From Candidatus Woesebacteria bacterium RIFCSPHIGHO2_02_FULL_42_20 (lineage in GTDB: Bacteria > Patescibacteriota > Microgenomatia > UBA8517): 64,000 nucleotides of DNA. Position numbers and translations under genes: made by a program. How positions within the stretch are numbered: the stretch's first letter is position 1; the number at the start of each line of letters is the position of its first letter. The DNA lies in the NCBI GenBank assembly GCA_001792535.1, contig MGGS01000013.1:64692-128691 (forward strand), written 5' to 3'. Under the pieces are notes generated by a model. It had not been told where the DNA came from and made no database searches. It worked only from the letters and a program-made list of their open reading frames with translations. This document shows, piece by piece, positions 2,480 through 55,859 of this stretch.

Positions 2480-3439
2480 ATGCAAAAACTACTGGTAATT
2501 TGCGGTCCTACCTCAACAGGGAAAACGAAATTGGCCCTACACCTTGCCAAGAAGTATAACAGTGAACTTATTTCTGCCGACTCCAGGCAGGTTTATAAAG
2601 GAATGAATATCGGAACAGGCAAGGAATTGCCAGCAAATTCAAAATTTAAGATCCAAAGTTCAAAATTGCCAGGATATTATGAAATCAACGAGGTTAGGGT
2701 TTGGGGTTACGATCTTGTTCCCCCCACTCGCTCTTTTAGCGTCGCACAATATAAAAAAATAATTGACAAAGTGTTACTCACTATATTTAATCGCAAGAAA
2801 TTACCCATACTTGTAGGCGGGACAGGCCTTTACATTAAAGCGATCATTGACGACATTTCTACGCTTGGCGTACCAAGAAATACTAACCTTCGAAAAAGTT
2901 TGCTAAATAAGACTTCAGACGAACTTTATGCTTTGCTGTCGCAATTTGACCCCATAAAGTCAGCTTCGTTAAATGTTTCGGACAAAAAGAATCCCAGAAG
3001 ACTGGTTCGCGCAATAGAAGTGGCTAGTCGCATCAACAAGCTTAGTGAAATTAAACCTAAAAAGATTAATTACAATTTGTTATTAATCGGTCTGATATTG
3101 TTTAGGCAAGATCTGTACAGCAAGATTGCTAAGCGAGTAGATCGGCGAATTGACCAGGGAATGGAAACGGAAATTCAAAAACTAATTAGTTCGGGAGTAA
3201 GATGGGGCAATCAGTCAATGAGTGGTATGGGCTATAAACAATGGGAGGGATACTTCAGCAAGAAAGAGAGTTTAAAAAAAGTGATCGATAAGTGGAAGGT
3301 AGCCGAGCGGAGTTATTCCCGGAAGCAGATTGCTTGGTTTAAAAAGGATAAAAGAATAACCTGGTTTGACATTGCTAACAAAGGTTATCCTCAAAATGTG
3401 GAAAGCTTGGTAAGAAAATGGTATAAAGAAACAAGCTAA
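2480..3439 (+). CDS. miaA: tRNA dimethylallyltransferase
   Basis: LLVICGPTSTGKTKLALHLAKKYNSELISADSRQVYKGMNIGTGK P-loop and substrate motifs. 319 aa. Confidence 0.9.
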   Translation: MQKLLVICGPTSTGKTKLALHLAKKYNSELISADSRQVYKGMNIGTGKELPANSKFKIQSSKLPGYYEINEVRVWGYDLVPPTRSFSVAQYKKIIDKVLLTIFNRKKLPILVGGTGLYIKAIIDDISTLGVPRNTNLRKSLLNKTSDELYALLSQFDPIKSASLNVSDKKNPRRLVRAIEVASRINKLSEIKPKKINYNLLLIGLILFRQDLYSKIAKRVDRRIDQGMETEIQKLISSGVRWGNQSMSGMGYKQWEGYFSKKESLKKVIDKWKVAERSYSRKQIAWFKKDKRITWFDIANKGYPQNVESLVRKWYKETS

Positions 3440-3442
3440 GTT

Positions 3443-4435
3443 ATGCACCAAAAAATTGAAATTTCACATAAGACTATCATTTTTACGGTTCTTTTCTTGG
3501 TGTTCTTGTGGTTTCTCTATTTTATTCGCGACATTATTTTTTTGGTTTTCGTTGCAATACTTATTTCAACGATATTAAACCCAATAGTTAAAAAGATTCA
3601 TAAGTTTAGAATACCCCGTGCATTTGCGGTGATAATTGTTTATCTATCGGGACTTGCCTTTTTGATTTTCGCCTTAGGTACTGTTCTGACTCCGCTTGTG
3701 GAGCAGACAAGAAATTTTACTAATAACTTCCCTCTTTACTTGGAGAGGTTGCAAATACCTGAAAGTGTGGTTAATCAAATTGCCAATGAGATTACTTCGC
3801 AGTTTGGAAGCATCTCTTCACAACTACTTAGGCTTGGTGTTTCAATTTTTTCAAATATATTGACAATTTTTGCAGTTTTGGTTATTGCTCTTTATCTGCT
3901 TATTACGCGGGAAAAAATTGACAAACAGCTCTATTCCATATTGGCCGCCGACAAGGCTAAAAAGATCGAAAGAGTGTTGAATCAGTTGGAGAAGGATCTG
4001 GGTGGCTGGACCAGAGGGGAATTATTGCTCATGTTTATGGTGGGGTTTACGACTTATTTGGGTTTGACTATTTTAGGTATCCCTTTTGCCGTTCCTCTGG
4101 GTGTGCTTGCCGGTTTGTTGGAAGTTGTACCAAATCTTGGCCCCGTGGTTGCAGCTATTCCTGCAACTATAGTGGGGTTTGCCATCTCCCCTATCAGTGG
4201 TTTTGCGGTTGTCGCACTTTCATTTTTAGTCCAGCAAGTGGAAAATTATGTTTTTGTTCCAAAAGTTATGGAAAAGTCTGCCGGCATTAATCCCGTCGTG
4301 ACACTGCTTGCGCTTTTGATTGGTTTTCGACTTGCAGGGGTTTCTGGGGCAATTCTGGCTGTTCCTGTAGTTATAACTCTTAGGGTAATAATTAAAGAAT
4401 ATTACCCGCCCACTGCTTCTCTTAAAGATCGATAA
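3443..4435 (+). CDS. AI-2E family transporter (PerM/YhhT-like permease)
   Basis: 330-aa polytopic membrane protein with the characteristic …LLEVVPNLGPVVAAIPA… segment of UPF0118/AI-2E transporters. Confidence 0.75.
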   Translation: MHQKIEISHKTIIFTVLFLVFLWFLYFIRDIIFLVFVAILISTILNPIVKKIHKFRIPRAFAVIIVYLSGLAFLIFALGTVLTPLVEQTRNFTNNFPLYLERLQIPESVVNQIANEITSQFGSISSQLLRLGVSIFSNILTIFAVLVIALYLLITREKIDKQLYSILAADKAKKIERVLNQLEKDLGGWTRGELLLMFMVGFTTYLGLTILGIPFAVPLGVLAGLLEVVPNLGPVVAAIPATIVGFAISPISGFAVVALSFLVQQVENYVFVPKVMEKSAGINPVVTLLALLIGFRLAGVSGAILAVPVVITLRVIIKEYYPPTASLKDR

Positions 4436-4448
4436 TATTGCGTAAATC

Positions 4449-4464: not shown

Positions 4465-4782
4465 CTCTGGAGGAAGGGCAATCGATCGCCAACAGCTACG
4501 CGGTTGTGGGCGGTAGGAAAGTCCAGGCAGCTCAAGGCAGGGTGGTCGTCGTAAGGCGGCACGCGAAAGCGCTAGAAAGTGCCACAGAGACAACGACTCA
4601 TCTTGGACCTAACCGGTCTAAGAAAGAGGGTGAAAAGAGGAAAACCTCCCCGCTGCAACCTCCGAATGGGGCGTTTGCTTGCCTACGCAAGTAGAAGGTA
4701 GCCTTGCCGAGCCCCGAAGCTTGAGGGCATAGATTGATGATTGCCATAAACAGAACCTGGCTTACTATCCTCCGGAGCCAAA
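4465..4782 (+). ncRNA. rnpB: RNase P RNA, bacterial type A
   Basis: GC-rich patch in an AT-rich genome. It contains GGAAAGTCCAGGC…AAGGCAGGGTGG, GTGCCACAGAGACAACGACTC, AGGGTGAAAAGAGG and the 3' block GGTAGCC…GCTTGAGGGCATAGATTGATGATTGCCATAAACAGAACCTGGCTTAC. These align segment by segment with the E. coli M1 RNA motifs GGAAAGUCCGGGCUCC, AGGGCAGG, ACAGAGAGCAAACC and ACAGAACCCGGCUUA. P1 can form between CTCTGGAGGA (4465-4474) and TCCTCCGGAG (4768-4777). Confidence 0.85.
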
Positions 4783-5521: not shown

Positions 5522-6219
5522 TTTTTCAATAGAAACAATTTTACCCACAGCATGATAAGTTCTTTGAAAGTTGAAACAATTCGATTGAATCTGAAAAATT
5601 GTGATTTCCCGTAACGCCTTTGATAGTGGTGGATTGAAACTTGGCGGAATTTGGCTCCTGCAAGCTGACACTTTTTGACCAATTCTACACAGACTGCCCC
5701 CGAATTTGAAGTCAATGTTATTTTGTCGATTATTTTTTTTCTAATGAGTCTGAAATCACAGTCAACGTCGTAGGTGGGAAGCCAAAAAAGCCAACGGGCG
5801 ACAAAGCTGTAAAGATTGCCTACGAATATGCGGTATGTGGGATCTCTCCTAGTCATTTTTATTCCGTTTACAAAGTCGGTATCAGAAGTCATTAGATTTG
5901 CAAGGATGGGTAGTTCGTGTACATCGTATTGACCGTCACCGTCGGTATAGAAAATGAGGTCCTTTGTGGAATTTGTAAACCCACTTTTTAAAGTACCCCC
6001 ATATCCCCGGTTAGTCTCGTGAAAAACGAGTTTTAGCTTTGGATAACTTTTCTTAAGTTTTTTTAGCACCTCTCTACTTTTGTCTTTGGAATCGTCATCG
6101 ACAACAATTACTTCGAAGTTACGTGTGATCTTGGGGAGGACAAGAAAAGCGTCTCTGACCAAGGTACCAATATTTGTTTCGTCGTTGAAGCAGGGGAAAA
6201 AGACCGAAATGCTGACCAT
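5518..6219 (-). CDS. family 2 glycosyltransferase, polyprenyl-phosphate sugar synthase type (DPM1/GtrB/ArnC-like)
   Basis: MVSISVFFPCFNDETNIGTLV…VIVVDDDSKDKS…NRGYGG… is a GT2 DxD/N-terminal signature. The protein is 233 aa. Confidence 0.8.
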   Translation of the reverse strand: MVSISVFFPCFNDETNIGTLVRDAFLVLPKITRNFEVIVVDDDSKDKSREVLKKLKKSYPKLKLVFHETNRGYGGTLKSGFTNSTKDLIFYTDGDGQYDVHELPILANLMTSDTDFVNGIKMTRRDPTYRIFVGNLYSFVARWLFWLPTYDVDCDFRLIRKKIIDKITLTSNSGAVCVELVKKCQLAGAKFRQVSIHHYQRRYGKSQFFRFNRIVSTFKELIMLWVKLFLLKK

Positions 6220-17304: not shown

Positions 17305-17498
17305 TTTTCTGGGTTTAGGATTTCCTGTGTATGTCAAAAGTGTGAAATAATATCTTGTCTTTTTGTATCGAGCTATTTCTCGTGGGCCTAATCGATCTTT
17401 TCTCATGTATCGCAAAATTTTATCTTGGTATTGCTTACCTCGATAGTTTGACTGTTTTTCACTAATGCGAACTAGATTATATCAAAGATAAAGTATAG

Positions 17499-17531
17499 CC
17501 CCTATAGTATTGCGCTAGGGGATTTAGATGG
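17499..17531. repeat. left copy (R1) of a 33-bp imperfect direct repeat flanking the six-gene island
   Basis: CCCCTATAGTATTGCGCTAGGGGATTTAGATGG is 28/33 identical to 23083..23115. It contains a CCCCTA…TAGGGG hairpin. Confidence 0.75.
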
Positions 17532-22670: not shown

Positions 22671-23082
22671 ACAGTTATAAAGTCAATTTGTGTATTATAG
22701 ATATGAAAATTGTAATTAACAAACATTTTCTTCACCCGTTATTCATTTTGTGTTGTGCTGTCGATGAAATGTTTGATCTTTCGACTTGCCCTGTGTGAAA
22801 ACATAATTTGAAAACCCGTGTCTTTGGGTCTGTATTTGCAATGCTTTTACAAGATGCAGAGCTGTTGTTTCTTGTGGGTATAAATGATCTTTCTTCATAA
22901 CATTACATTAAAAAACCTCCTTTCAGGAGGCTTGATTCAAAGAAAGTTTATTACATCAAACCTCCGCCTTGGTCCGATTGACAAGGCGAGAGAGATGAAT
23001 GTAAAAGACAAGATATTTACGCATACGAGGGTATTATAATCTCTCCCCATAATTTTGTAAAGAAATTTTGTAAAGTGGGAAG

Positions 23083-23115
23083 CTCCTATAGTATTGCACT
23101 AGAGGATTTGGGTGG
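23083..23115. repeat. right copy (R2) of the 33-bp direct repeat
   Basis: CTCCTATAGTATTGCACTAGAGGATTTGGGTGG abuts the TATAAT of the rel/spoT gene. Confidence 0.75.
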
Positions 23116-34327: not shown

Positions 34328-35158
34328 TCATAGTGGGCTTTTGATGTTTTTAAGTTTTGGATTGGTTACTTTAGTATAGATTTGGGTTGTTCGGATATTT
34401 GCATGCCCCAGAAGTTCTTGGACATATCGAACATCAGTCCCATTTTCCAGTAGGTGTGTGGCAAAACTATGTCTTAATGAGTGGAATGTGGCAGGTTTTT
34501 TAATATATGCTTTTTTAAGCGCATATGAAAAAACTTTTTGTGCGGTTCTGGTTGTAAGTTTGCCTCCCTGCTCACTTTCAAATACTATATTGTCCGCTTT
34601 TTTTCCTGTGATAAGGTTTTGGATATCAGTTTTTATTTTTGCGGGCACAATGGTTATTCTGTCTTTTGCTCCCTTGGCGTTTTTAATGTGAATTGTCAAC
34701 TCGTCCAAATCTATATCTTTCACTTTTAGATTTATGACCTCACTTACTCTTAACCCTGCTCCGTATGATAAAGAAATAAGAATCTTGTGTTTTGAATTGC
34801 TGATAGATTCTATTATTTTTCTTATATCCCGACGTGACAAAATGACAGGGAGTTTTATTGCATGCTTAGTGCGGGGAATGTTAATAAAGAACCTTCTGTG
34901 CATAATCTTTTCGAAGTAGAACAAAAGCGCACTGTATGCAGTATTTATTGTGGAGTTTGATTTTTTCTGACTCGCAAGTCTTTCTAAGTAATTTCTGATA
35001 TCAACAGAATTTATGGTTTTGGGGCTTTTGTTAGTATATTTTAAAACCTTGGTAATGTATCCTAAATATGCTTTTCTTGTTCTTAGACTGAAACCGCGAA
35101 GTTTCATTTCTTGCTCAAGTTTTCTGATTGGATCTTGACTGGGATATTTGTATTTCAT
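34328..35158 (-). CDS. tyrosine-type site-specific recombinase (XerC/XerD family)
   Basis: C-terminal catalytic block …HSLRHSFATHLLENGTDVRYVQELLGHANIRTTQIYTKV (R…HxxR…Y). N-terminal SAM-like core-binding domain. Confidence 0.75.
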   Translation of the reverse strand: MKYKYPSQDPIRKLEQEMKLRGFSLRTRKAYLGYITKVLKYTNKSPKTINSVDIRNYLERLASQKKSNSTINTAYSALLFYFEKIMHRRFFINIPRTKHAIKLPVILSRRDIRKIIESISNSKHKILISLSYGAGLRVSEVINLKVKDIDLDELTIHIKNAKGAKDRITIVPAKIKTDIQNLITGKKADNIVFESEQGGKLTTRTAQKVFSYALKKAYIKKPATFHSLRHSFATHLLENGTDVRYVQELLGHANIRTTQIYTKVTNPKLKNIKSPL

Positions 35159-36081: not shown

Positions 36082-36504
36082 ATGATAAATAAACGATTAC
36101 AAAATTTATTTCTTGTGGGAGCAATTTTAGAGATTCTTCATATGCCTTTAGAGCTGTGGCTTTTTGGTTTAGACCATTCAGTTTACAGCGATGCAAGGGC
36201 CGTTTTTGATTTTATGCAGGAAAAACTTAGTTATTTTTCCTCAAATAGCGATGAATCATTTATTATCCTTATTGGTATGTTTGGATTTTTTTGGCTCTTA
36301 ACAACATACCTCATGTTAAATGGGAAAAAGTGGCAATTGGTTGTTGTTATTTTTTTCAGTCTTCTCTTTATATCAGAAGTACATCATCTTATTCGCTCTA
36401 TAATAAAGACGAGCTATTATCCAGGAACTTTAATAGGCTTGGTAATTTGTATAATAGGGATCGTTATTTTCATAGAATCTCTAAAATCTTTAAAGGAAAA
36501 GTAA
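36082..36504 (+). CDS. hypothetical polytopic membrane protein
   Basis: 140 aa with 4 predicted TM helices. Confidence 0.4.
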   Translation: MINKRLQNLFLVGAILEILHMPLELWLFGLDHSVYSDARAVFDFMQEKLSYFSSNSDESFIILIGMFGFFWLLTTYLMLNGKKWQLVVVIFFSLLFISEVHHLIRSIIKTSYYPGTLIGLVICIIGIVIFIESLKSLKEK

Positions 36505-50217: not shown

Positions 50218-51376
50218 CGAAAGTGAGCGCGACACCTTTTTTGTCTGCCCTGCCTGTCCTGCCGATTCTGTGAATGTAGGCTTCGTAAGAATCGGGTAAA
50301 TCGTAATTAATAACGTGGCTGACGTTGGGTATGTCTAATCCGCGGGAAGCCACGTCGGTTGCTATGAGTATACGAATAATATTAGCCTTGAATCTTTCTA
50401 GAGTTCTGGCTCTTTGACTTTGTTTTTTATTTCCATGAATGGCATCTGCCTTAAAACCTCTTTTGACAAGTTCATTGGAAAGCCTTTGTACGCCGTGTTT
50501 TGTTCTTCCAAAGACGAGGACTTTTTCATACTCGGGGTTACTAAGCAGTTGGTGAAGTTTATTCACTTTAATGCTGGAATTAGAGACCCTAATAATACTT
50601 TGGGTAATGTTTTCTATGGTGTCCTTTGTTTTGACAGATACCGTAAAAGGTTTATGGACGAAACTTTGCAAAATTCCGTTTACTTTTTGGCTGATTGTTG
50701 CCGAGAAAAAAAGTGACTGGCGGACTTTAGGAAGAAGTGAAACTATGTACTTTATGTCTTTGATAAACCCGATATCAACCATTCTATCCGTTTCGTCGAG
50801 TACAACAACTCCAAAATATGACAGGTTGAGAGAGTGAGTTCTAAGCAGGTCTTGGATTCTTCCCGGGGTCCCGATTACAAAATTTGGGTTTCTCCTCAAG
50901 TCTCTGATTTGCCTTCTAATATTTGCTCCGCCAATACACAAGGCATAATGAATTCCAAGACCTTTTGAAAAGTCAAGAAATTCATCTCTAATTTGAGTAG
51001 CTAGCTCGCGAGTGGGGGTAAGGATTAATACCTTCTGACTCCTGTTTTTAAAAACTTTATCTATTAAGGGAATTAAAAATGCTGCCGTTTTTCCGGTTCC
51101 GGTATTTGCAATTCCAATAATGTCTTTTCCTGCCAGGATTGAAGGGATTGCTTGATCTTGAATAGGGGTCGGGGTTGTGTATCCCTTTTGCAATATGTTT
51201 TCTCTTATTCTATCCGAGATCTGAAAATCGGCAAATGTGTGGGATACAACCTGCTCTTCAGTTATCTGATTCTGGTGGGTTGCGTTAATGATATTTGAAG
51301 GGTCAAAAGATTTAATAGTTCTGTATCCACTACGGAAAGCGCCTCTTCTTTGTTTGTTATTAAACTTTCTATACAT
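50210..51376 (-). CDS. DEAD-box ATP-dependent RNA helicase
   Basis: Q-motif/motif I …PTPIQDQAIP…ANTGTGKTAAF, motif II VLDETDRM (DEAD variant), SAT and HRIGRTGR. Confidence 0.85.
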   Translation of the reverse strand: MYRKFNNKQRRGAFRSGYRTIKSFDPSNIINATHQNQITEEQVVSHTFADFQISDRIRENILQKGYTTPTPIQDQAIPSILAGKDIIGIANTGTGKTAAFLIPLIDKVFKNRSQKVLILTPTRELATQIRDEFLDFSKGLGIHYALCIGGANIRRQIRDLRRNPNFVIGTPGRIQDLLRTHSLNLSYFGVVVLDETDRMVDIGFIKDIKYIVSLLPKVRQSLFFSATISQKVNGILQSFVHKPFTVSVKTKDTIENITQSIIRVSNSSIKVNKLHQLLSNPEYEKVLVFGRTKHGVQRLSNELVKRGFKADAIHGNKKQSQRARTLERFKANIIRILIATDVASRGLDIPNVSHVINYDLPDSYEAYIHRIGRTGRADKKGVALTFVN

Positions 51377-51904
51377 AGGTTACGCTTCGGATTAAAGAAA
51401 TAAAACTGCCTAAATTAAGAAAGATATAAAGTTGCGGAGAAAAGATACAAAAAAGTAGTTAACAAAATTGGAGTATCTTTATCTGGCGAAACTCAAAATA
51501 AACTTACAATTTAAGCAGATCTATGACTTCAACCTGCTGACTTGGAAGTAAGTGTATCACTAAATAACAGAGATGTCAAATGACTATAGGGTTTTTGTGA
51601 TATTTAAGTGAGAGCTTTGGTGAGTGCCTCACGGATGTTTTTCCCGCCAAACCACCCTCCGAGGTAGACGGTTGCGTGTTTGTTTCTGTTCCAGTCACGA
51701 AGGTAATATTTATCGATGCGCCCGCCCCTTTTTAAAAATGTTTGAATCAGCTCGTCCAACGAAAGTTTAGTATTAATAATTCATTCTACACTTAAAAAGG
51801 GGCTTTGTCAGCTGCAGTTTGTTTGTTGCTTTTTTCCAAAGCTTTTTCAACAGCTGCTTCGGCCAAAAGTTGTGACACAGCTTCGGATTCGTAATTGGTG
51901 GGTT

Positions 51905-53662
51905 TTAAGAAAGCTCGAAGCCCTCGAGAAGTTTTTTGTTGCCCTCGATTTGATATTTAAGTAGATCCGAATATGCGCCTTTTTGCCTTGCCAGTTCTTT
52001 TGGCGTGCCCGATTGAGTAATTTTGCCGTTGTCGATGACTATGACGTGGTCGACGTTTTGCAGTGTTGAGAATCTGTGGGCGATAATGATAACCAGCTTG
52101 TCTTGCATCAGTTTTTCCAATGCACCCTGGACTTCCATCTCACTTTTGGCGTCCAAACTGCTTGTCGCCTCATCTAAAATCAGTATTGGGGCATTTTTAA
52201 GAATTGCCCGGGCAATCTGGATTCGCTGCTTTTGGCCGCCGGAAAGCTTTACCCCGCGCTCTCCTATTTCGGTGTCGATTCCCTTGGGAAGTTTTTCGGC
52301 AAAACCTAAAGCATTTGCCGCCTTGAGAGCTGCTATAATTTCTTTGTCCGAAGCCGGTGTTCCGTAAGCGACGTTTTCGCGCACACTTGTTGAGAAAAGT
52401 TCATTTTCCTGAAAAACCAAAGCGATGTTTTGCCTTACCTGGCTAAATTCCAAATTTTTATAACTTTTGCCACCGATATAAATATTGCCGCGCCTAGGTT
52501 CGTAAAGCTTTAAAATTAAATTGGTTATTGTTGTTTTGCCGGAACCCGAGTGGCCAACCAGTGCCACCTTTCGCTTGGCTGGAATTGTAAAAGAGACGTC
52601 AGTTAAGACTTTGCCGGAATCTTTGTAGCTAAACGACACGTTCCTAAATTCCAAAGAATGATTGGTAAGTTTTTTATAATTAGTCTTTTTGTCTGTCATT
52701 TCGCTCCCGGGAAGCTCCAGTATTTCGAAAAATTCTTTGGAGCCGCTTTCGGCATTTTGCAGTTGGGTCAAAATGAATGACATGGCGAACAAGGGCCTTC
52801 TGGCTTGGATAACCAATTGAATTATGAGCACCATTTCACCAATGGTTATGGCACCTTCAAAAGTTTGGTAAAAAACAACGACGTTTATCCCCAAAAGAAT
52901 GATAACCAAACTTAAGTTTCGGGCAAAATCTATCAAATGATAGGTTTGGCTTTGACCGGCGTAAATTTCATTTACCTTAGCTAGTCTCTTGGACACAAAA
53001 TTATACTCTTTGGTCTCGGTCAGAAAGCCTTTGACTATCTTTATATTGCCTACCACCTCTTGGATACGGCCTCTTAATCGGTCTTCAAGCTTGTTTTTCT
53101 TGACTTCTTCCCGGCCCCACCTTAGCGACGAATAGTAAGAAAGTGCCAGGTAGATTGGGAAAAGCATGAATACAAAGCCGGCAATGGGCAAGCTGTAGCG
53201 CGCCAGAATGAGTACGGTGAAAATGCTTTGCAAAAATGAAGGGAGGATAAAATTTGTTGCTGCATTGGTGAAATTTTGAATCGTAGAAATACCCCGACTT
53301 AATTGATTAACAATTTTGCCCGACATTTCGGAGTCAAAATATGTTTGGGGTAGAAACAAAACTTTGTTGTAAAACTTTTCGGTTAAAAGTTTTCTCTGAA
53401 GCCCTGCAAAGTGGTCACCCAACCGGTCCGAAATTCCCGAAACGACAATGCCGATAAAATTTAGGGCAAACATCAATGCTATTAAAAATGTCAACGTCTG
53501 CTGACTACCGCTTTCTTGGGCGACAATTTCGTCGACAATCGATTTGGAAACGACTGGTGTGGTCAGCTCTAAAAGAGCCGAAGCGACAATTAGAAGCGTG
53601 ATAATTGCCAGGATTTTATAGAGCGGTCTGGAGACTTTTACAATTTTAAGTATATTTTTCAC
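51905..53662 (-). CDS. ABC exporter, fused permease/ATPase (MsbA-like)
   Basis: 6-TM N-terminal domain. Walker A GHSGSGKTT, signature LSGGQKQRIQIARAIL, Walker B ILILDEATS. Confidence 0.85.
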   Translation of the reverse strand: MKNILKIVKVSRPLYKILAIITLLIVASALLELTTPVVSKSIVDEIVAQESGSQQTLTFLIALMFALNFIGIVVSGISDRLGDHFAGLQRKLLTEKFYNKVLFLPQTYFDSEMSGKIVNQLSRGISTIQNFTNAATNFILPSFLQSIFTVLILARYSLPIAGFVFMLFPIYLALSYYSSLRWGREEVKKNKLEDRLRGRIQEVVGNIKIVKGFLTETKEYNFVSKRLAKVNEIYAGQSQTYHLIDFARNLSLVIILLGINVVVFYQTFEGAITIGEMVLIIQLVIQARRPLFAMSFILTQLQNAESGSKEFFEILELPGSEMTDKKTNYKKLTNHSLEFRNVSFSYKDSGKVLTDVSFTIPAKRKVALVGHSGSGKTTITNLILKLYEPRRGNIYIGGKSYKNLEFSQVRQNIALVFQENELFSTSVRENVAYGTPASDKEIIAALKAANALGFAEKLPKGIDTEIGERGVKLSGGQKQRIQIARAILKNAPILILDEATSSLDAKSEMEVQGALEKLMQDKLVIIIAHRFSTLQNVDHVIVIDNGKITQSGTPKELARQKGAYSDLLKYQIEGNKKLLEGFELS

Positions 53663-53782
53663 CCTGATATTTTAACTCCAAACACACTTTTACAAAAGAG
53701 AAATTTTAACCAATTTCCAGAATCAATTTTTCCTGCAACAAAAGATCGTTTAAGTGACTTTAAATTCTAACCATGTGGTTAG

Positions 53783-53805
53783 GCTGAGCGGGCCAGTCTA
53801 GGACC
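53783..53805. repeat. 23-bp direct repeat, copy 1 (GCTGAGCGGGCCAGTCTAGGACC)
   Basis: 22/23 identical to 54607..54629. The two copies bracket gene 53815..54588. Confidence 0.7.
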
Positions 53806-53814
53806 TTCTTGTTC

Positions 53815-54588
53815 TTATATTATTACGTTATAGGGAGTTGGGAGTTTAAAAAGAAAACTTCCGTAATTTATCAAGTGTCCCAGATTATTTTTAATTGCCC
53901 ATTTAGTACATATCTTTCGATTATAAAGTTGTCCCTTTGAGGTTAACCTATTCTTTTTCCAATAAGATTCATGTATTTGATGATAACTAAGCCATTTTAT
54001 TGGTTCCGGTAAGCCAGATTTTAGCATTGCCGCCATAACACAGGCATCCCAGGCCTCAAAACCAATTAATGCGTCGGGTAAATTTCCTTTGTGGTTATTC
54101 CACCACCTTCGGGTGAAAAAGAAGACATCTGAACCAGCAGACCAACGACCTAGAGGTAGCTTATCTCTCAGTTGATCTCTGGTAATAGTATTTTTAGGAA
54201 GGTCCTTTTTTGAAAAATCTACTCTATGAGAATACCCACACTCCCATTTTTTCAGAGAGTCTCTAATAAAATTTGACGCGTTAGTTACAAATGAGATGTC
54301 GGAATTTGTATATAAGAATAAATCACAATCAGGATAGGCTGAAAGGCCGTAGTCAACGACATCTTTTAAAAATGGCATAGTTTTCTTCTCGCCCAAGCTT
54401 AAAGAATTTCTTTGTCCATTTTCTAAACTAAACTCTGCAATTAAAAACCCATATTTATCGTTGTTGTAAAATTCCTGCCATGTTCTTTTTGCTCTTATCA
54501 TCCTGTCCGTGGTTAAATTGTTTGCTTTCCACCAGTTGTAGATATGAACTATCTTCTTATTCATAGAGAAATTTGTGAAATTATACAC
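53815..54588 (-). CDS. hypothetical protein (possibly a DxD-type sugar transferase-like protein)
   Basis: 257 aa. …CDLFLYTNSDISF… is a possible DxD-like segment. No confident family. Confidence 0.35.
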   Translation of the reverse strand: MYNFTNFSMNKKIVHIYNWWKANNLTTDRMIRAKRTWQEFYNNDKYGFLIAEFSLENGQRNSLSLGEKKTMPFLKDVVDYGLSAYPDCDLFLYTNSDISFVTNASNFIRDSLKKWECGYSHRVDFSKKDLPKNTITRDQLRDKLPLGRWSAGSDVFFFTRRWWNNHKGNLPDALIGFEAWDACVMAAMLKSGLPEPIKWLSYHQIHESYWKKNRLTSKGQLYNRKICTKWAIKNNLGHLINYGSFLFKLPTPYNVII

Positions 54589-54606
54589 CGGACAAGCTAA
54601 TAAAAT

Positions 54607-54629
54607 GCTGAGCAGGCCAGTCTAGGACC
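54607..54629. repeat. 23-bp direct repeat, copy 2 (GCTGAGCAGGCCAGTCTAGGACC)
   Basis: Located 19 nt upstream of the start codon of the 257-aa gene. Confidence 0.7.
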
Positions 54630-54646
54630 CAATTGTCCCATAATCG

Positions 54647-55048
54647 CTATTCCAGCTCAAACCATAATGGACTCTTTTTTGGATTACCGTTGTAGTAATT
54701 AACTGTTATCTCATCATCTTTCTTAATATTTTTTAAAGCAACAAAATCAATTATCATATCTTTTTGTTTTATCTTGAATCTTGCGTTTCGTTTATATGTA
54801 TGGTTATATATTGATCCAAAACCCAAGGCAATTGCTGATCGTTCCTTATTTCTGCCAAAATAAAAGAAATAAGTAACAAGAATACTCTCTCTTAAATTAG
54901 ATGTGTCGTATTTTGGAACTTCAATAACAGGGCATCTTTCAATAATTTCGTCTTTTTTAATATCATGCCTGGCAAAAACACCTCGGCCTGCATTATGAAT
55001 TTTTGATTTACTAATATACACATTGTCAGAAGCGGGAAAATTTTTCAT
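54647..55048 (-). CDS. SET-domain protein (putative protein-lysine methyltransferase)
   Basis: NAGRGVFARHDIKKDEIIERCP (GxG/SET-N), GSIYNHTYKRNARF (NHxxxPN-like) and DEITVNY (ELxxDY) motifs. The start is set at the internal ATG 55048, because the ORF-track N-terminal extension would run through the tRNA-Gln gene. A TTGTTATAAT box lies 6 nt upstream of the ATG. Confidence 0.65.
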   Translation of the reverse strand: MKNFPASDNVYISKSKIHNAGRGVFARHDIKKDEIIERCPVIEVPKYDTSNLRESILVTYFFYFGRNKERSAIALGFGSIYNHTYKRNARFKIKQKDMIIDFVALKNIKKDDEITVNYYNGNPKKSPLWFELE

Positions 55049-55090
55049 GATGTGATTATAACAAAGTTGATGTTGTCTTTGAGAAGAGAG

Positions 55091-55161
55091 CTGCCCAGCC
55101 ACGATTCGAACGTGGATTAGATGGTTCAGAGCCATCTGGCCTACCGTTAGCCGACCGGGCA
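55091..55161 (-). tRNA. tRNA-Gln (anticodon CUG)
   Basis: 71-nt cloverleaf folded by hand. The acceptor stem is TGCCCGG/CTGGGCA with a U1:A72 pair and discriminator G73, a hallmark of bacterial tRNA-Gln. D-arm GGCT/GGCC, anticodon stem GATGG/CCATC with loop CTCTGAA (U33, CUG, A37), and T-arm CCACG-TTCGAAT-CGTGG. No CCA is encoded. Confidence 0.85.
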
Positions 55162-55199
55162 ATAATGCCTTTGCAAGTATATCAAAATTATGGCCGGAA

Positions 55200-55859
55200 T
55201 CACACGATGGAGATTGAAGCTTCTTGTTCAAGGACTTGTAAACTTCCCACGACAATTTTCTTATGCGAGCGGGCTATAACTTTCTTTCTTGCCAATTTCT
55301 CCATGGCAAGACTTACGGTTTCTCTGGTAATCCCCGCTAAGTCCGCGATATCCTGGTGGGTGAGTGAAAGATCGATTAAAACGCTGCCATCTTTAAAACG
55401 CTTGCCAAACCTTTTTGCAGAAATAAGAATAGCCGAGGCAACTCTGTTATACGAACTTCCGTAAAGGAGTTGCGAAACATTGGTAAGCAGGCCATCCAAC
55501 CCTACCAGAATGCGTTTTGTCAGATCAAATAATACGCTTGGATCTTCTTTTACAAACCTTAGCACTTTTTCTTTCGGGACACGGTAAATATTAGCGGTGG
55601 ATATTGTCTGGTAGAAATAGGTATTTTTAGCCTCACCCAAGGCCCACATCATTGGAAAAAATGACCCGTGTTTGAATATATTTAACGTAAGCTCCGAACC
55701 ATTTTTGAAAATTGAATTCATTTTTACATACCCTTTGCTCAAATAGTAAACGCCATTGGGTTCATCCCCGGCGTTAATTAAGATTTCTCCACGCTTACAT
55801 TTCAAAAAGGTGCCGTGTGAGAAGAAATCTGAAATTTTTCTATCAATAACTTTCCCCAT
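55200..55859 (-). CDS. Crp/Fnr-family transcriptional regulator
   Basis: N-terminal cNMP-binding beta-roll and C-terminal HTH …HQDIADLAGITRETVSLAMEKL…. Confidence 0.8.
   Translation of the reverse strand: MGKVIDRKISDFFSHGTFLKCKRGEILINAGDEPNGVYYLSKGYVKMNSIFKNGSELTLNIFKHGSFFPMMWALGEAKNTYFYQTISTANIYRVPKEKVLRFVKEDPSVLFDLTKRILVGLDGLLTNVSQLLYGSSYNRVASAILISAKRFGKRFKDGSVLIDLSLTHQDIADLAGITRETVSLAMEKLARKKVIARSHKKIVVGSLQVLEQEASISIV

Follow-up and report, generated by a model that had tools for sequence, protein, structure and literature searches.

A conserved family of short putative boundary elements behind tRNA-Gln in Candidatus Woesebacteria and relatives

Introduction

The DNA analysed here is a 64-kb stretch, termed the window throughout, from a member of Candidatus Woesebacteria of the Rifle aquifer. 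It contains two copies of a 23-mer in direct orientation, placed on either side of a single gene and close to a gene for tRNA-Gln. A preliminary description of this DNA proposed that the pair is either the trace of an insertion at a tRNA hotspot or an operator shared by two genes and possibly read by a nearby Crp/Fnr regulator. We describe the repeats and the genes around them, the family of short elements to which the repeats appear to belong, and the gene arrangements in which this family occurs in related genomes. These point to a possible system of gene modules that are bounded by the element and stacked behind the tRNA gene, a reading that has to be weighed against a cis-acting motif at gene ends and against less probable alternatives.

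The tRNA-Gln locus

All local genes lie on the minus strand, and in the direction of transcription the order is Crp/Fnr, tRNA-Gln(CTG), SET, copy 2 of the repeat, a gene of 249 aa, copy 1 and an ABC exporter. The left flank is formed by the Crp/Fnr-family regulator (55200-55859; Pfam cNMP_binding and HTH_Crp_2), which is syntenic with tRNA-Gln in a related locus, L116 (related loci are given L numbers here). The tRNA-Gln(CTG) gene (55090-55161), the apparent left anchor of the stack described below, is called by ARAGORN and scores 54.1 bits with the Rfam tRNA model; its 3′ end reads ...GGGCAG/CTC, the slash marking the junction. It is followed by a leader of about 41 nt with a -10-like TTGTTATAAT (55049-55089), conserved upstream of SET in L033, L034, L037 and L045, and then by the SET-domain gene of 133 aa (54647-55048; PF00856, E 2.9e-14), the putative cargo of a first module. 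Copy 2 of the element comes next in a long form, cGATTATGGGAC-AATTG-GGTCCTAGACTGGCCTGCTCAGC (54605-54646; nhmmer E 5e-10), with its core at 54607-54629. A second leader (54565-54604), with TATAAT at 54580-54585 and conserved with the upstream regions of L007, L014, L017 and L018, precedes the 249-aa gene (53815-54564), the putative cargo of a second module. This gene is closed by copy 1 (53780-53819; nhmmer E 1.2e-8; core 53783-53805). The right flank is an MsbA-like ABC exporter (51905-53662; Pfam ABC_membrane and ABC_tran, with the NCBIfam MsbA-like model below its cut-off), and no element is present downstream of it in 51370-51915.

The gene between the repeats had been given as 257 aa long. 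A gene is indeed bracketed there, and the open reading frame (ORF) extends to 257 aa from GTG 54588, but the true start is likely ATG 54564, which gives 249 aa; this start is called in public assemblies and is conserved in homologues. The stretch covering SET and the 249-aa gene is slightly AT-richer than the rest (0.32-0.37 vs about 0.40), and this anomaly of composition was considered as a mark of foreign DNA and rejected as not diagnostic.

On the plus strand the 23-mer reads GCTGAGC(G/A)GGCCAGTCTAGGACC, with copy 1 (GCTGAGCGGGCCAGTCTAGGACC) at 53783-53805 and copy 2 (GCTGAGCAGGCCAGTCTAGGACC) at 54607-54629, identical at 22 of 23 positions; on the coding (minus) strand the motif is GGTCCTAGACTGGCC(Y)GCTCAGC. 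A search that tolerates as many as 3 mismatches finds exactly two matches in the 64 kb and no third copy, against 0.00 expected from 100 dinucleotide-preserving shuffles. The repeat that had been reported is real, and no other short repeat of the window is as clean. Identity between the copies breaks off sharply at either edge of the 23-mer. The core begins 17 nt past the SET stop in copy 2 and 9 nt past the stop of the 249-aa gene in copy 1. The gene arrangement and both 23-mers recur in independent NCBI, ENA and JGI assemblies, and the exact 23-mer has 0 matches in the GTDB representative genomes.

A family of elements that follow genes

The 23-mers are the cores of an element whose long form spans about 45 nt, GTTATGGGAy-AATTG-GGTyCTAGACC-GnnnnGCTCAGCC(A). 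Copy 2 carries this long form, beginning 2 nt past the SET stop; copy 1 has the core only, and its 5′ box is degenerate and overlaps the end of the 249-aa gene. An nhmmer profile was built from the element copies flanking SET and 249-aa genes and iterated over all fetched DNA, comprising about 392 kb of Microgenomates loci together with the window. At E<0.01 it recovers 22 distinct copies, and 2 more in L118 bring the number to 24, distributed over about 14 Microgenomates genomes; exactly two copies are in the window. As controls, 579 kb of viral loci and 238 kb of distant SET loci contain no match to the profile at E<0.01, and degenerate patterns of the element have 0 matches in IMG/VR.

The position of the element follows simple rules. 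All 24 copies share the strand of their anchor gene, a co-oriented ORF precedes the element in 17 of the 22 copies examined, and the core starts 7-20 nt past the stop codon in 10 of those 17. The genes that precede it are unrelated to one another and include SET, the 249-aa gene, Fic, two NUDIX genes, a PhD/ParE pair, Crp, TspO/DUF2177 and small unknowns. Occurrence of the 23-mer upstream of many unrelated genes had been named in the preliminary description as the result that would speak for a regulatory motif and against an insertion scar. The genes beside it are indeed unrelated, but the element lies after genes and not upstream of start codons at a fixed distance.

Conservation of the element has both a shared and a lineage-specific component. 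The GTTATGGGA and GCTCAGCC boxes are conserved across lineages. All element copies in L019 have GACCGACATGCTCAGCC in common, and two copies in L052 share 30 identical bases across the junction; copy 2 matches its L034 orthologue after SET at only 15/23 positions, though the SET block is 88% identical. Because lineage-specific variants are shared within a genome, the site appears to be functionally constrained and not decaying, and the pattern implies that copies within one genome would be kept alike by mutual recombination or by co-evolution with a binding protein. On sequence comparison, then, the repeats of the window are best regarded as members of a conserved family of short boundary sequences that separate putative single-gene modules behind tRNA-Gln in Woesebacteria and relatives.

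Genes associated with the element

Homologues of the SET gene form at least 795 clusters in Woesebacteria and Microgenomates at 65-89% identity, and their neighbours differ by genome. Element-like sequences flank SET in L033, L034/L037, L043, L045, L052 and L055, and counterparts of copy 2 follow it in L037, L043, L052 and L055. Copy 2, although it stands upstream of the 249-aa gene, is the 3′ element of the neighbouring, putative SET module. In L033, a copy-2-like element (80% identical) is located upstream of SET and none downstream, an arrangement that looks like a circular permutation. SET was also considered as a recently inserted foreign gene, and this was ruled out; the gene is highly conserved and near-ubiquitous in Woesebacteria, though it sits in a module.

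Two further features recur near SET. A small gene of the GIY-YIG nuclease family (about 85 aa) adjoins it in several Microgenomates; the assignment is confirmed by Pfam for L118 3969-4226 and was made by eye from translated flanks for L045, L056, L057 and L059, where the gene is downstream of SET. A tRNA-Asn(GTT) gene is found near SET in L041 (2882-2955), L049 (2408-2480) and L063 (53-125); in L041 it and SET are on opposite strands, with the tRNA gene 45 nt upstream of the SET start.

The 249-aa family is rare: 5.8 billion proteins yield 14 clusters of it, and its members occur in unrelated contexts. An element follows the gene in L007-10 and L019 (GGTTCTAGACCGACATGCTCAGCC), L016 (GGTCCTAGACCGGCTGCGCAGCC), L015 (GGTCCTAGGCCGGCCCGCTCATC) and L014/23 (GGTCCTAAACCGGTATGCTTATCC), so that an element of the copy 1 type accompanies it in at least five other genomes; none follows the homologues in L011, L017/20, L018/21 and L022/24. 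Since a related element trails the gene in other genomes, copy 1 is a conserved 3′ appendage and not a duplicated target. An insertion scar, as the pair had been read in the preliminary description, or a target-site duplication is contradicted on three counts: copy 1 travels with the 249-aa gene, copy 2 belongs to SET, and genes unrelated to these also have the element after them.

Searches of Pfam, PHROG, NCBIfam and PDB sequences give no match for the 249-aa protein. Its AlphaFold (AF2) model has a predicted local distance difference test score (pLDDT) of 72 and a predicted template modelling score (pTM) of 0.77. In a Foldseek search of the PDB with this model, the top 30 matches are almost all GT-A or nucleotidyl-sugar enzymes, which are weak by E value (6e-3 to 0.1); the top folds have a probability of 0.87-0.96 and a template modelling (TM) score of 0.3. 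A TNxDIS motif is conserved in the family alignment. From the predicted structure the protein is probably, on a weak signal, a GT-A-fold glycosyltransferase-like enzyme. A role as a mobility enzyme was considered and rejected, as there is no nuclease or recombinase signal and the fold is weakly GT-A; the gene is taken as cargo.

Some members of the family show signs of change. The homologue in L019 (5001) has ATA and not ATG as its start codon, and the gene may be inactive or start later. In the same locus, an insertion of about 100 nt (5811-5905) with CGTTTCACT direct repeats at its ends lies between the element and the Fic promoter and is absent in L007. In L022 (4961-5395) and L024 (877-1271), contigs of 42-97 kb, the C-terminal half of the gene alone is present after an (AT)n run, as a decayed copy. 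A homologue of 69% identity in L011 (GCA_016936135.1, a 3.5-kb contig) is filed under a 'Candidatus Thermoplasmatota archaeon' metagenome-assembled genome (MAG); because the contexts of the family are otherwise of the candidate phyla radiation (CPR) type, this filing is probably a binning error.

Arrays and homology breakpoints

The pattern is plainest in L052. Its tRNA-Gln(CTG) gene occupies 1855-1926, and a head-to-tail stack begins 4 nt later, in the order NUDIX, DUF7768, SET, NUDIX, a 110-aa gene and a 207-aa gene, with an element after each of the first five. Those after SET (3406-3448), the second NUDIX gene (4004-4043) and the 110-aa gene (4404-4444) were found by the profile; those after the first NUDIX gene and DUF7768 are degenerate, were missed by the profile and were read by eye. 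The order of modules behind the tRNA gene varies: the 249-aa module stands directly behind tRNA-Gln(CTG) in L007/8, and in the window the SET module comes first, followed by the 249-aa module. In L019, two 3′ boxes lie 65 nt apart with no gene between them, as in an 'empty' unit.

Comparison between genomes places the ends of homology at the same points. Homology blocks start after tRNA-Gln or after the 3′ end of an element (...CAG/C), and end at the 3′ end of the next element. One case is the block shared by L007 (9887-10810) and L019 (4887-5810), which is 98.6% identical. Its start falls on the final 6 nt (CAGCCA) of tRNA-Gln in L007 and on the CAGCCA end of an element in L019, and its end falls on the CAGCCA of the downstream element; beyond it the flanks are unrelated or 78% identical, and a nearby core gene, SpoU, is 92% identical. 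The SET block that the window has in common with L034, L037, L043 and L052 starts 3-21 nt past the tRNA and reaches as far as the 3′ end of copy 2. With L015 the window shares a 249-aa block that extends from this 3′ end through copy 1. In L034/L037, an element (...ACTCAG/CTC) stands where the window has the 3′ end of tRNA-Gln (...GGGCAG/CTC), 41 nt before the SET start.

In the related locus L116, Crp is 79% identical and tRNA-Gln is identical to those of the window. At 2 nt beyond the tRNA 3′ end the homology between the two (82.9%) is lost, and L116 continues with a convergent YceG gene; no SET, 249-aa gene or element is present in it past tRNA-Gln. The window has no counterpart of this YceG gene that would mark the far boundary of the insertion relative to L116. 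The earlier proposal of a mobile segment at a tRNA-Gln hotspot is thus borne out in part: the repeats bound a unit that is found in different contexts, and tRNA-Gln is a breakpoint with respect to L116, but the repeats are not the insertion scar of the 249-aa gene.

Two close relatives also differ in the stretch that separates the 249-aa module from the conserved SpoU methylase gene (L007 10821-10886 vs L019 5910-5976; L008 1679-2930). One has an AbiEii/AbiEi pair and a 67-nt remnant of the start of Fic, and the other an intact Fic followed by an element. The stretch is a small accessory-gene hotspot.

Structure of the element

The element has no detectable fold. RNAalifold on 20 copies gives 0 conserved pairs, there is no Rfam match for the element, and the tRNA model is silent at E<=1. 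The single-stranded DNA (ssDNA) of four inter-gene stretches, folded on both strands, gives z-scores of -1.05 to +0.97 against shuffles; as these stretches fold no better than shuffled sequence, the elements are not attC sites. The minus strand of 53500-55300 contains no intrinsic terminator in the form of a GC-rich hairpin followed by a U-tract. Inspection of the aligned copies reveals a single internal palindrome of 10-11 bp (GGTyCTAGACC), with flanking arms that lack inverted symmetry.

A derivation of the element from a tRNA fragment was considered, since AATTGGG, GGTTC.A..CC and CAGCCA within it recall parts of tRNA-Gln, and was set aside as a weak lead, the likeness being non-significant locally and not specific to Gln in fixed register. 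Local alignment of the element with the 3′ end of tRNA-Gln is not significant (p about 0.3). In fixed register, the last 25 nt of the element match tRNA-Gln at 11-15/25 positions (p 0.001-0.04), and tRNA-Asn is equally good.

Recombinases and other features of the window

The window encodes one tyrosine recombinase (34328-35158, minus strand; 276 aa; PF00589, E 8.9e-39), Xer/IntI-like, located 19 kb from the repeats. It scores 221.8 bits with the TIGR02249 integron integrase model (cut-off 265), matched in two stretches, and 214 bits with XerA (cut-off 220), and it is too short for the IntI-specific insert. This protein is a candidate for an enzyme acting in trans. No recombinase or integrase was found by Pfam among the genes next to the array or the tRNA. 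About 1 kb from the recombinase, inverted repeats of 39 nt (36038-36076/36489-36527; 77% complementary) bracket an ORF of 140 aa (36082-36504), and the segment 36038-36527 may be invertible or mobile.

An origin in a phage or plasmid was also considered and rejected, as annotated phage and plasmid collections contain no match; viral contigs have only distant (<=41%) relatives of SET or of the glycosyltransferase-like protein, and these are without elements.

Elsewhere in the window, 4466-4780 (plus strand) encodes bacterial RNase P RNA class A (RF00010, 109.1 bits, over the gathering score). Two other direct repeats are present: 1878-1934 / 2430-2486, of 57 nt at 79% identity and 552 bp apart, and 17497-17531 / 23081-23115, of 35 nt at 86% identity (AGCCCCTATAGTATTGCGCTAGGGGATTTAGATGG) and 5.6 kb apart.

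Interpretation and alternatives

The best reading of these arrangements, which we regard as evenly balanced between true and false, takes the 23-mers for the cores of recombination sites that mark off single-gene modules stacked head to tail behind tRNA-Gln(CTG). A module would begin with a short leader containing a -10 box, continue with one gene or occasionally a few, and end in the element, and modules would be stacked from the 3′ end of tRNA-Gln(CTG) in the same orientation as the tRNA. The stack in the window would run from tRNA-Gln through SET with copy 2 and the 249-aa gene with copy 1 to the ABC exporter. Crossing over at the 3′ end of the element (...GCTCAG/C) would join, exchange or lose modules, the 3′ end of tRNA-Gln (...CAG/C) would be equivalent to such a site, in a role like that of attI in an integron, and the gene for the enzyme would lie elsewhere in the genome. 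The elements form a family with set rules of orientation and position, they occur in arrays, and homology breaks at the 3′ ends of elements and tRNA genes; we infer that modules move by recombination at the elements and that this is site-specific rather than driven by short homology.

A wider proposal goes beyond this, and we offer it tentatively, the chances being against it. Woesebacteria and related Microgenomates may possess a hitherto undescribed gene-cassette system that is analogous to integrons and mechanistically distinct from them, with sequence-conserved, unstructured double-strand sites of about 45 nt, one on each single-gene module, modules captured and stacked at the 3′ end of tRNA-Gln(CTG) in the place of attI, a recombinase encoded elsewhere and sites that co-evolve with their enzyme in each lineage.

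Several points weigh against recombination at the elements. Gene order is identical in 22 contigs of this species from many samples, with no presence/absence polymorphism, and neither a circular junction nor a true empty-site allele has been seen. Intergenic regions in CPR bacteria are very short, so that any breakpoint falls near an element, which weakens the argument from breakpoints. The elements have neither the hairpin nor the symmetric arms typical of known tyrosine-recombinase sites. Their likeness to the 3′ end of tRNA-Gln is weak and not specific to Gln, and amounts at most to a generic layout resembling a T-arm and acceptor. A tblastn search of all loci found no homologue of the window recombinase in the other element-bearing loci; as this protein is distant from the repeats, below the cut-offs and without such homologues, no enzyme can be assigned. 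Finally, every module brings its own -10 box, which would hold just as well for ordinary transcription units ending in a common 3′ motif.

This last point leads to the main rival, which we judge unlikely, though it retains an appreciable share of the probability. Here, the element would be a cis-acting motif of the 3′ flank, bound as DNA or at the mRNA 3′ end by a lineage-specific protein and acting, for example, as a factor-dependent terminator, insulator or stability element. As nothing beyond it in an ordinary transcription unit would be under constraint, homology blocks would simply run out there. Strict co-orientation with the preceding gene, abutment on the stop codon and a -10 box for every following gene all suit such a motif, as do the stable arrangement in the population and the absence of a linked recombinase, and the sharing of variants within a genome fits co-evolution with one binding protein. 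A general terminator is hard to reconcile with just 2 copies in 64 kb, and neither a conserved RNA or ssDNA structure nor a U-tract is present. The motif also leaves several arrangements unexplained: the 3′ end of tRNA-Gln replaces the element in the same register for two independent module types, L019 contains a gene-less unit, L033 has a permuted order, and the 98.6%-identical block of L007 and L019 is set in unrelated flanks.

It is improbable that the repeats are decaying, non-functional scars of the attL/attR type, that is, duplicated tRNA 3′ ends left by larger elements that inserted at tRNA-Gln and eroded to single genes. Such scars would fit a stack that starts at the tRNA-Gln 3′ end, repeats that are co-oriented with the tRNA, synteny that breaks at the tRNA 3′ end and the fixed-register resemblance of the last 25 nt to the T-arm and acceptor end. 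Across at least 14 genomes, however, the repeats are closer to each other than to the resident tRNA-Gln, and their similarity to tRNA-Asn is equal; neither the local alignment nor the Rfam tRNA model supports a tRNA origin. Homogenization within genomes and conservation of boxes across lineages argue for constraint, and remnants of an integrase are absent.

An operator for the adjacent Crp/Fnr regulator, serving the 249-aa gene and the ABC exporter as had first been suggested, is very improbable. The Crp/Fnr gene is about 0.6 kb away, GGTyCTAGACC is a short imperfect palindrome and each copy does sit upstream of a gene, but the motif contains no CRP/FNR palindrome (neither TGTGA-N6-TCACA nor TTGAT-N4-ATCAA). 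Its spacing is variable, at 9-52 nt to the next -10 box and 20-160 nt to the start, and is tied instead to the upstream stop codon. The element is present without a Crp gene within 3-10 kb in L007, L019 and L052, and in L116 no element lies downstream of Crp and tRNA-Gln. Finally, a chance match or an assembly artefact has a negligible probability, as shuffles yield no match and both copies are identical across the independent assemblies.

Significance

CPR bacteria have tiny genomes, and our literature search found no report of integron-like cassette arrays in them. If the elements are recombination sites, cassettes would be captured through linear sequence sites, with a tRNA gene as the dock and an unlinked enzyme. 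This would account for the shuffling among lineages of accessory genes, including toxin-antitoxin, Fic, NUDIX, glycosyltransferase-like and SET genes, and the element would be a signature by which variable regions could be searched for across thousands of Microgenomates MAGs. Even if the element were a cis-acting motif, it would be a conserved, lineage-specific cis-signal of unrelated genes, pointing to an unknown DNA- or RNA-binding factor.

Comparison with known systems

Several families of short repeats and sites invite comparison. Repetitive extragenic palindromic (REP) sequences, bacterial interspersed mosaic elements (BIMEs) and miniature inverted-repeat transposable elements (MITEs) are, like the element, short conserved intergenic sequences with several copies per genome. 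Unlike them, the element shows neither terminal inverted repeats nor target-site duplications nor a palindromic hairpin, its density is low (2 in 64 kb), its orientation to genes is strict and its copies are clustered in arrays.

Xer-dependent modules, such as integrative mobile elements exploiting Xer recombination (IMEX) and the pdif modules of Acinetobacter, are small, have short sites and rely on a housekeeping recombinase encoded elsewhere. Small modules between short, here putative, recombination sites and a Xer-like recombinase in the window are points in common. By inspection only, the element lacks the inverted 11-6-11 arms of dif-like sites, and its sites are all direct, whereas those of the Xer-dependent modules alternate.

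With integrons, the resemblance is one of layout. Single-gene units are co-oriented and arranged head to tail, as in the L052 array and the two units of the window; at the end of each, next to the stop codon, stands a closing site whose length is conserved, with junctions at the 3′ end of the site. There is one fixed entry point at the head of the array, sites within a genome are alike, and the cargo (toxin-antitoxin pairs, Fic, NUDIX and small unknown genes) is of the types found in sedentary integrons. The differences lie in the sites and the machinery: the elements have no attC hairpin and are conserved in sequence and not in structure; intI, attI and Pc are absent beside the array, whose head is the 3′ end of tRNA-Gln and whose units have their own -10 boxes; and the only nearby tyrosine recombinase is below the IntI cut-off and has no room for the IntI insert.

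Islands anchored at tRNA genes, whose att sites are repeats of the tRNA 3′ end and which may accrete in tandem, offer the other parallel. Williams, in 2002, is said to have described sublocations of integration within tRNA genes, and Coleman and colleagues, in 2006, reportedly found repeated tRNA 3′ fragments in the islands of Prochlorococcus. As in such islands, the variable DNA starts exactly at the tRNA 3′ end and is punctuated by co-oriented direct repeats, and the long form of about 45 nt and the core of about 25 nt match the identity blocks that extend to the tRNA end from the anticodon loop and from the T-loop, respectively. The repeats here differ in that they do not copy the 3′ end of the resident tRNA, the tRNA has no integrase beside it, the units measure 0.5-1.5 kb and not several kb, and the element also occurs away from tRNA genes. 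Because attC hairpins and an adjacent integrase or attI are missing and the repeats do not reproduce the tRNA end, the system falls outside the defining tests of both integrons and tRNA-anchored islands, yet it is integron-like in its layout and tRNA-island-like in its anchoring.

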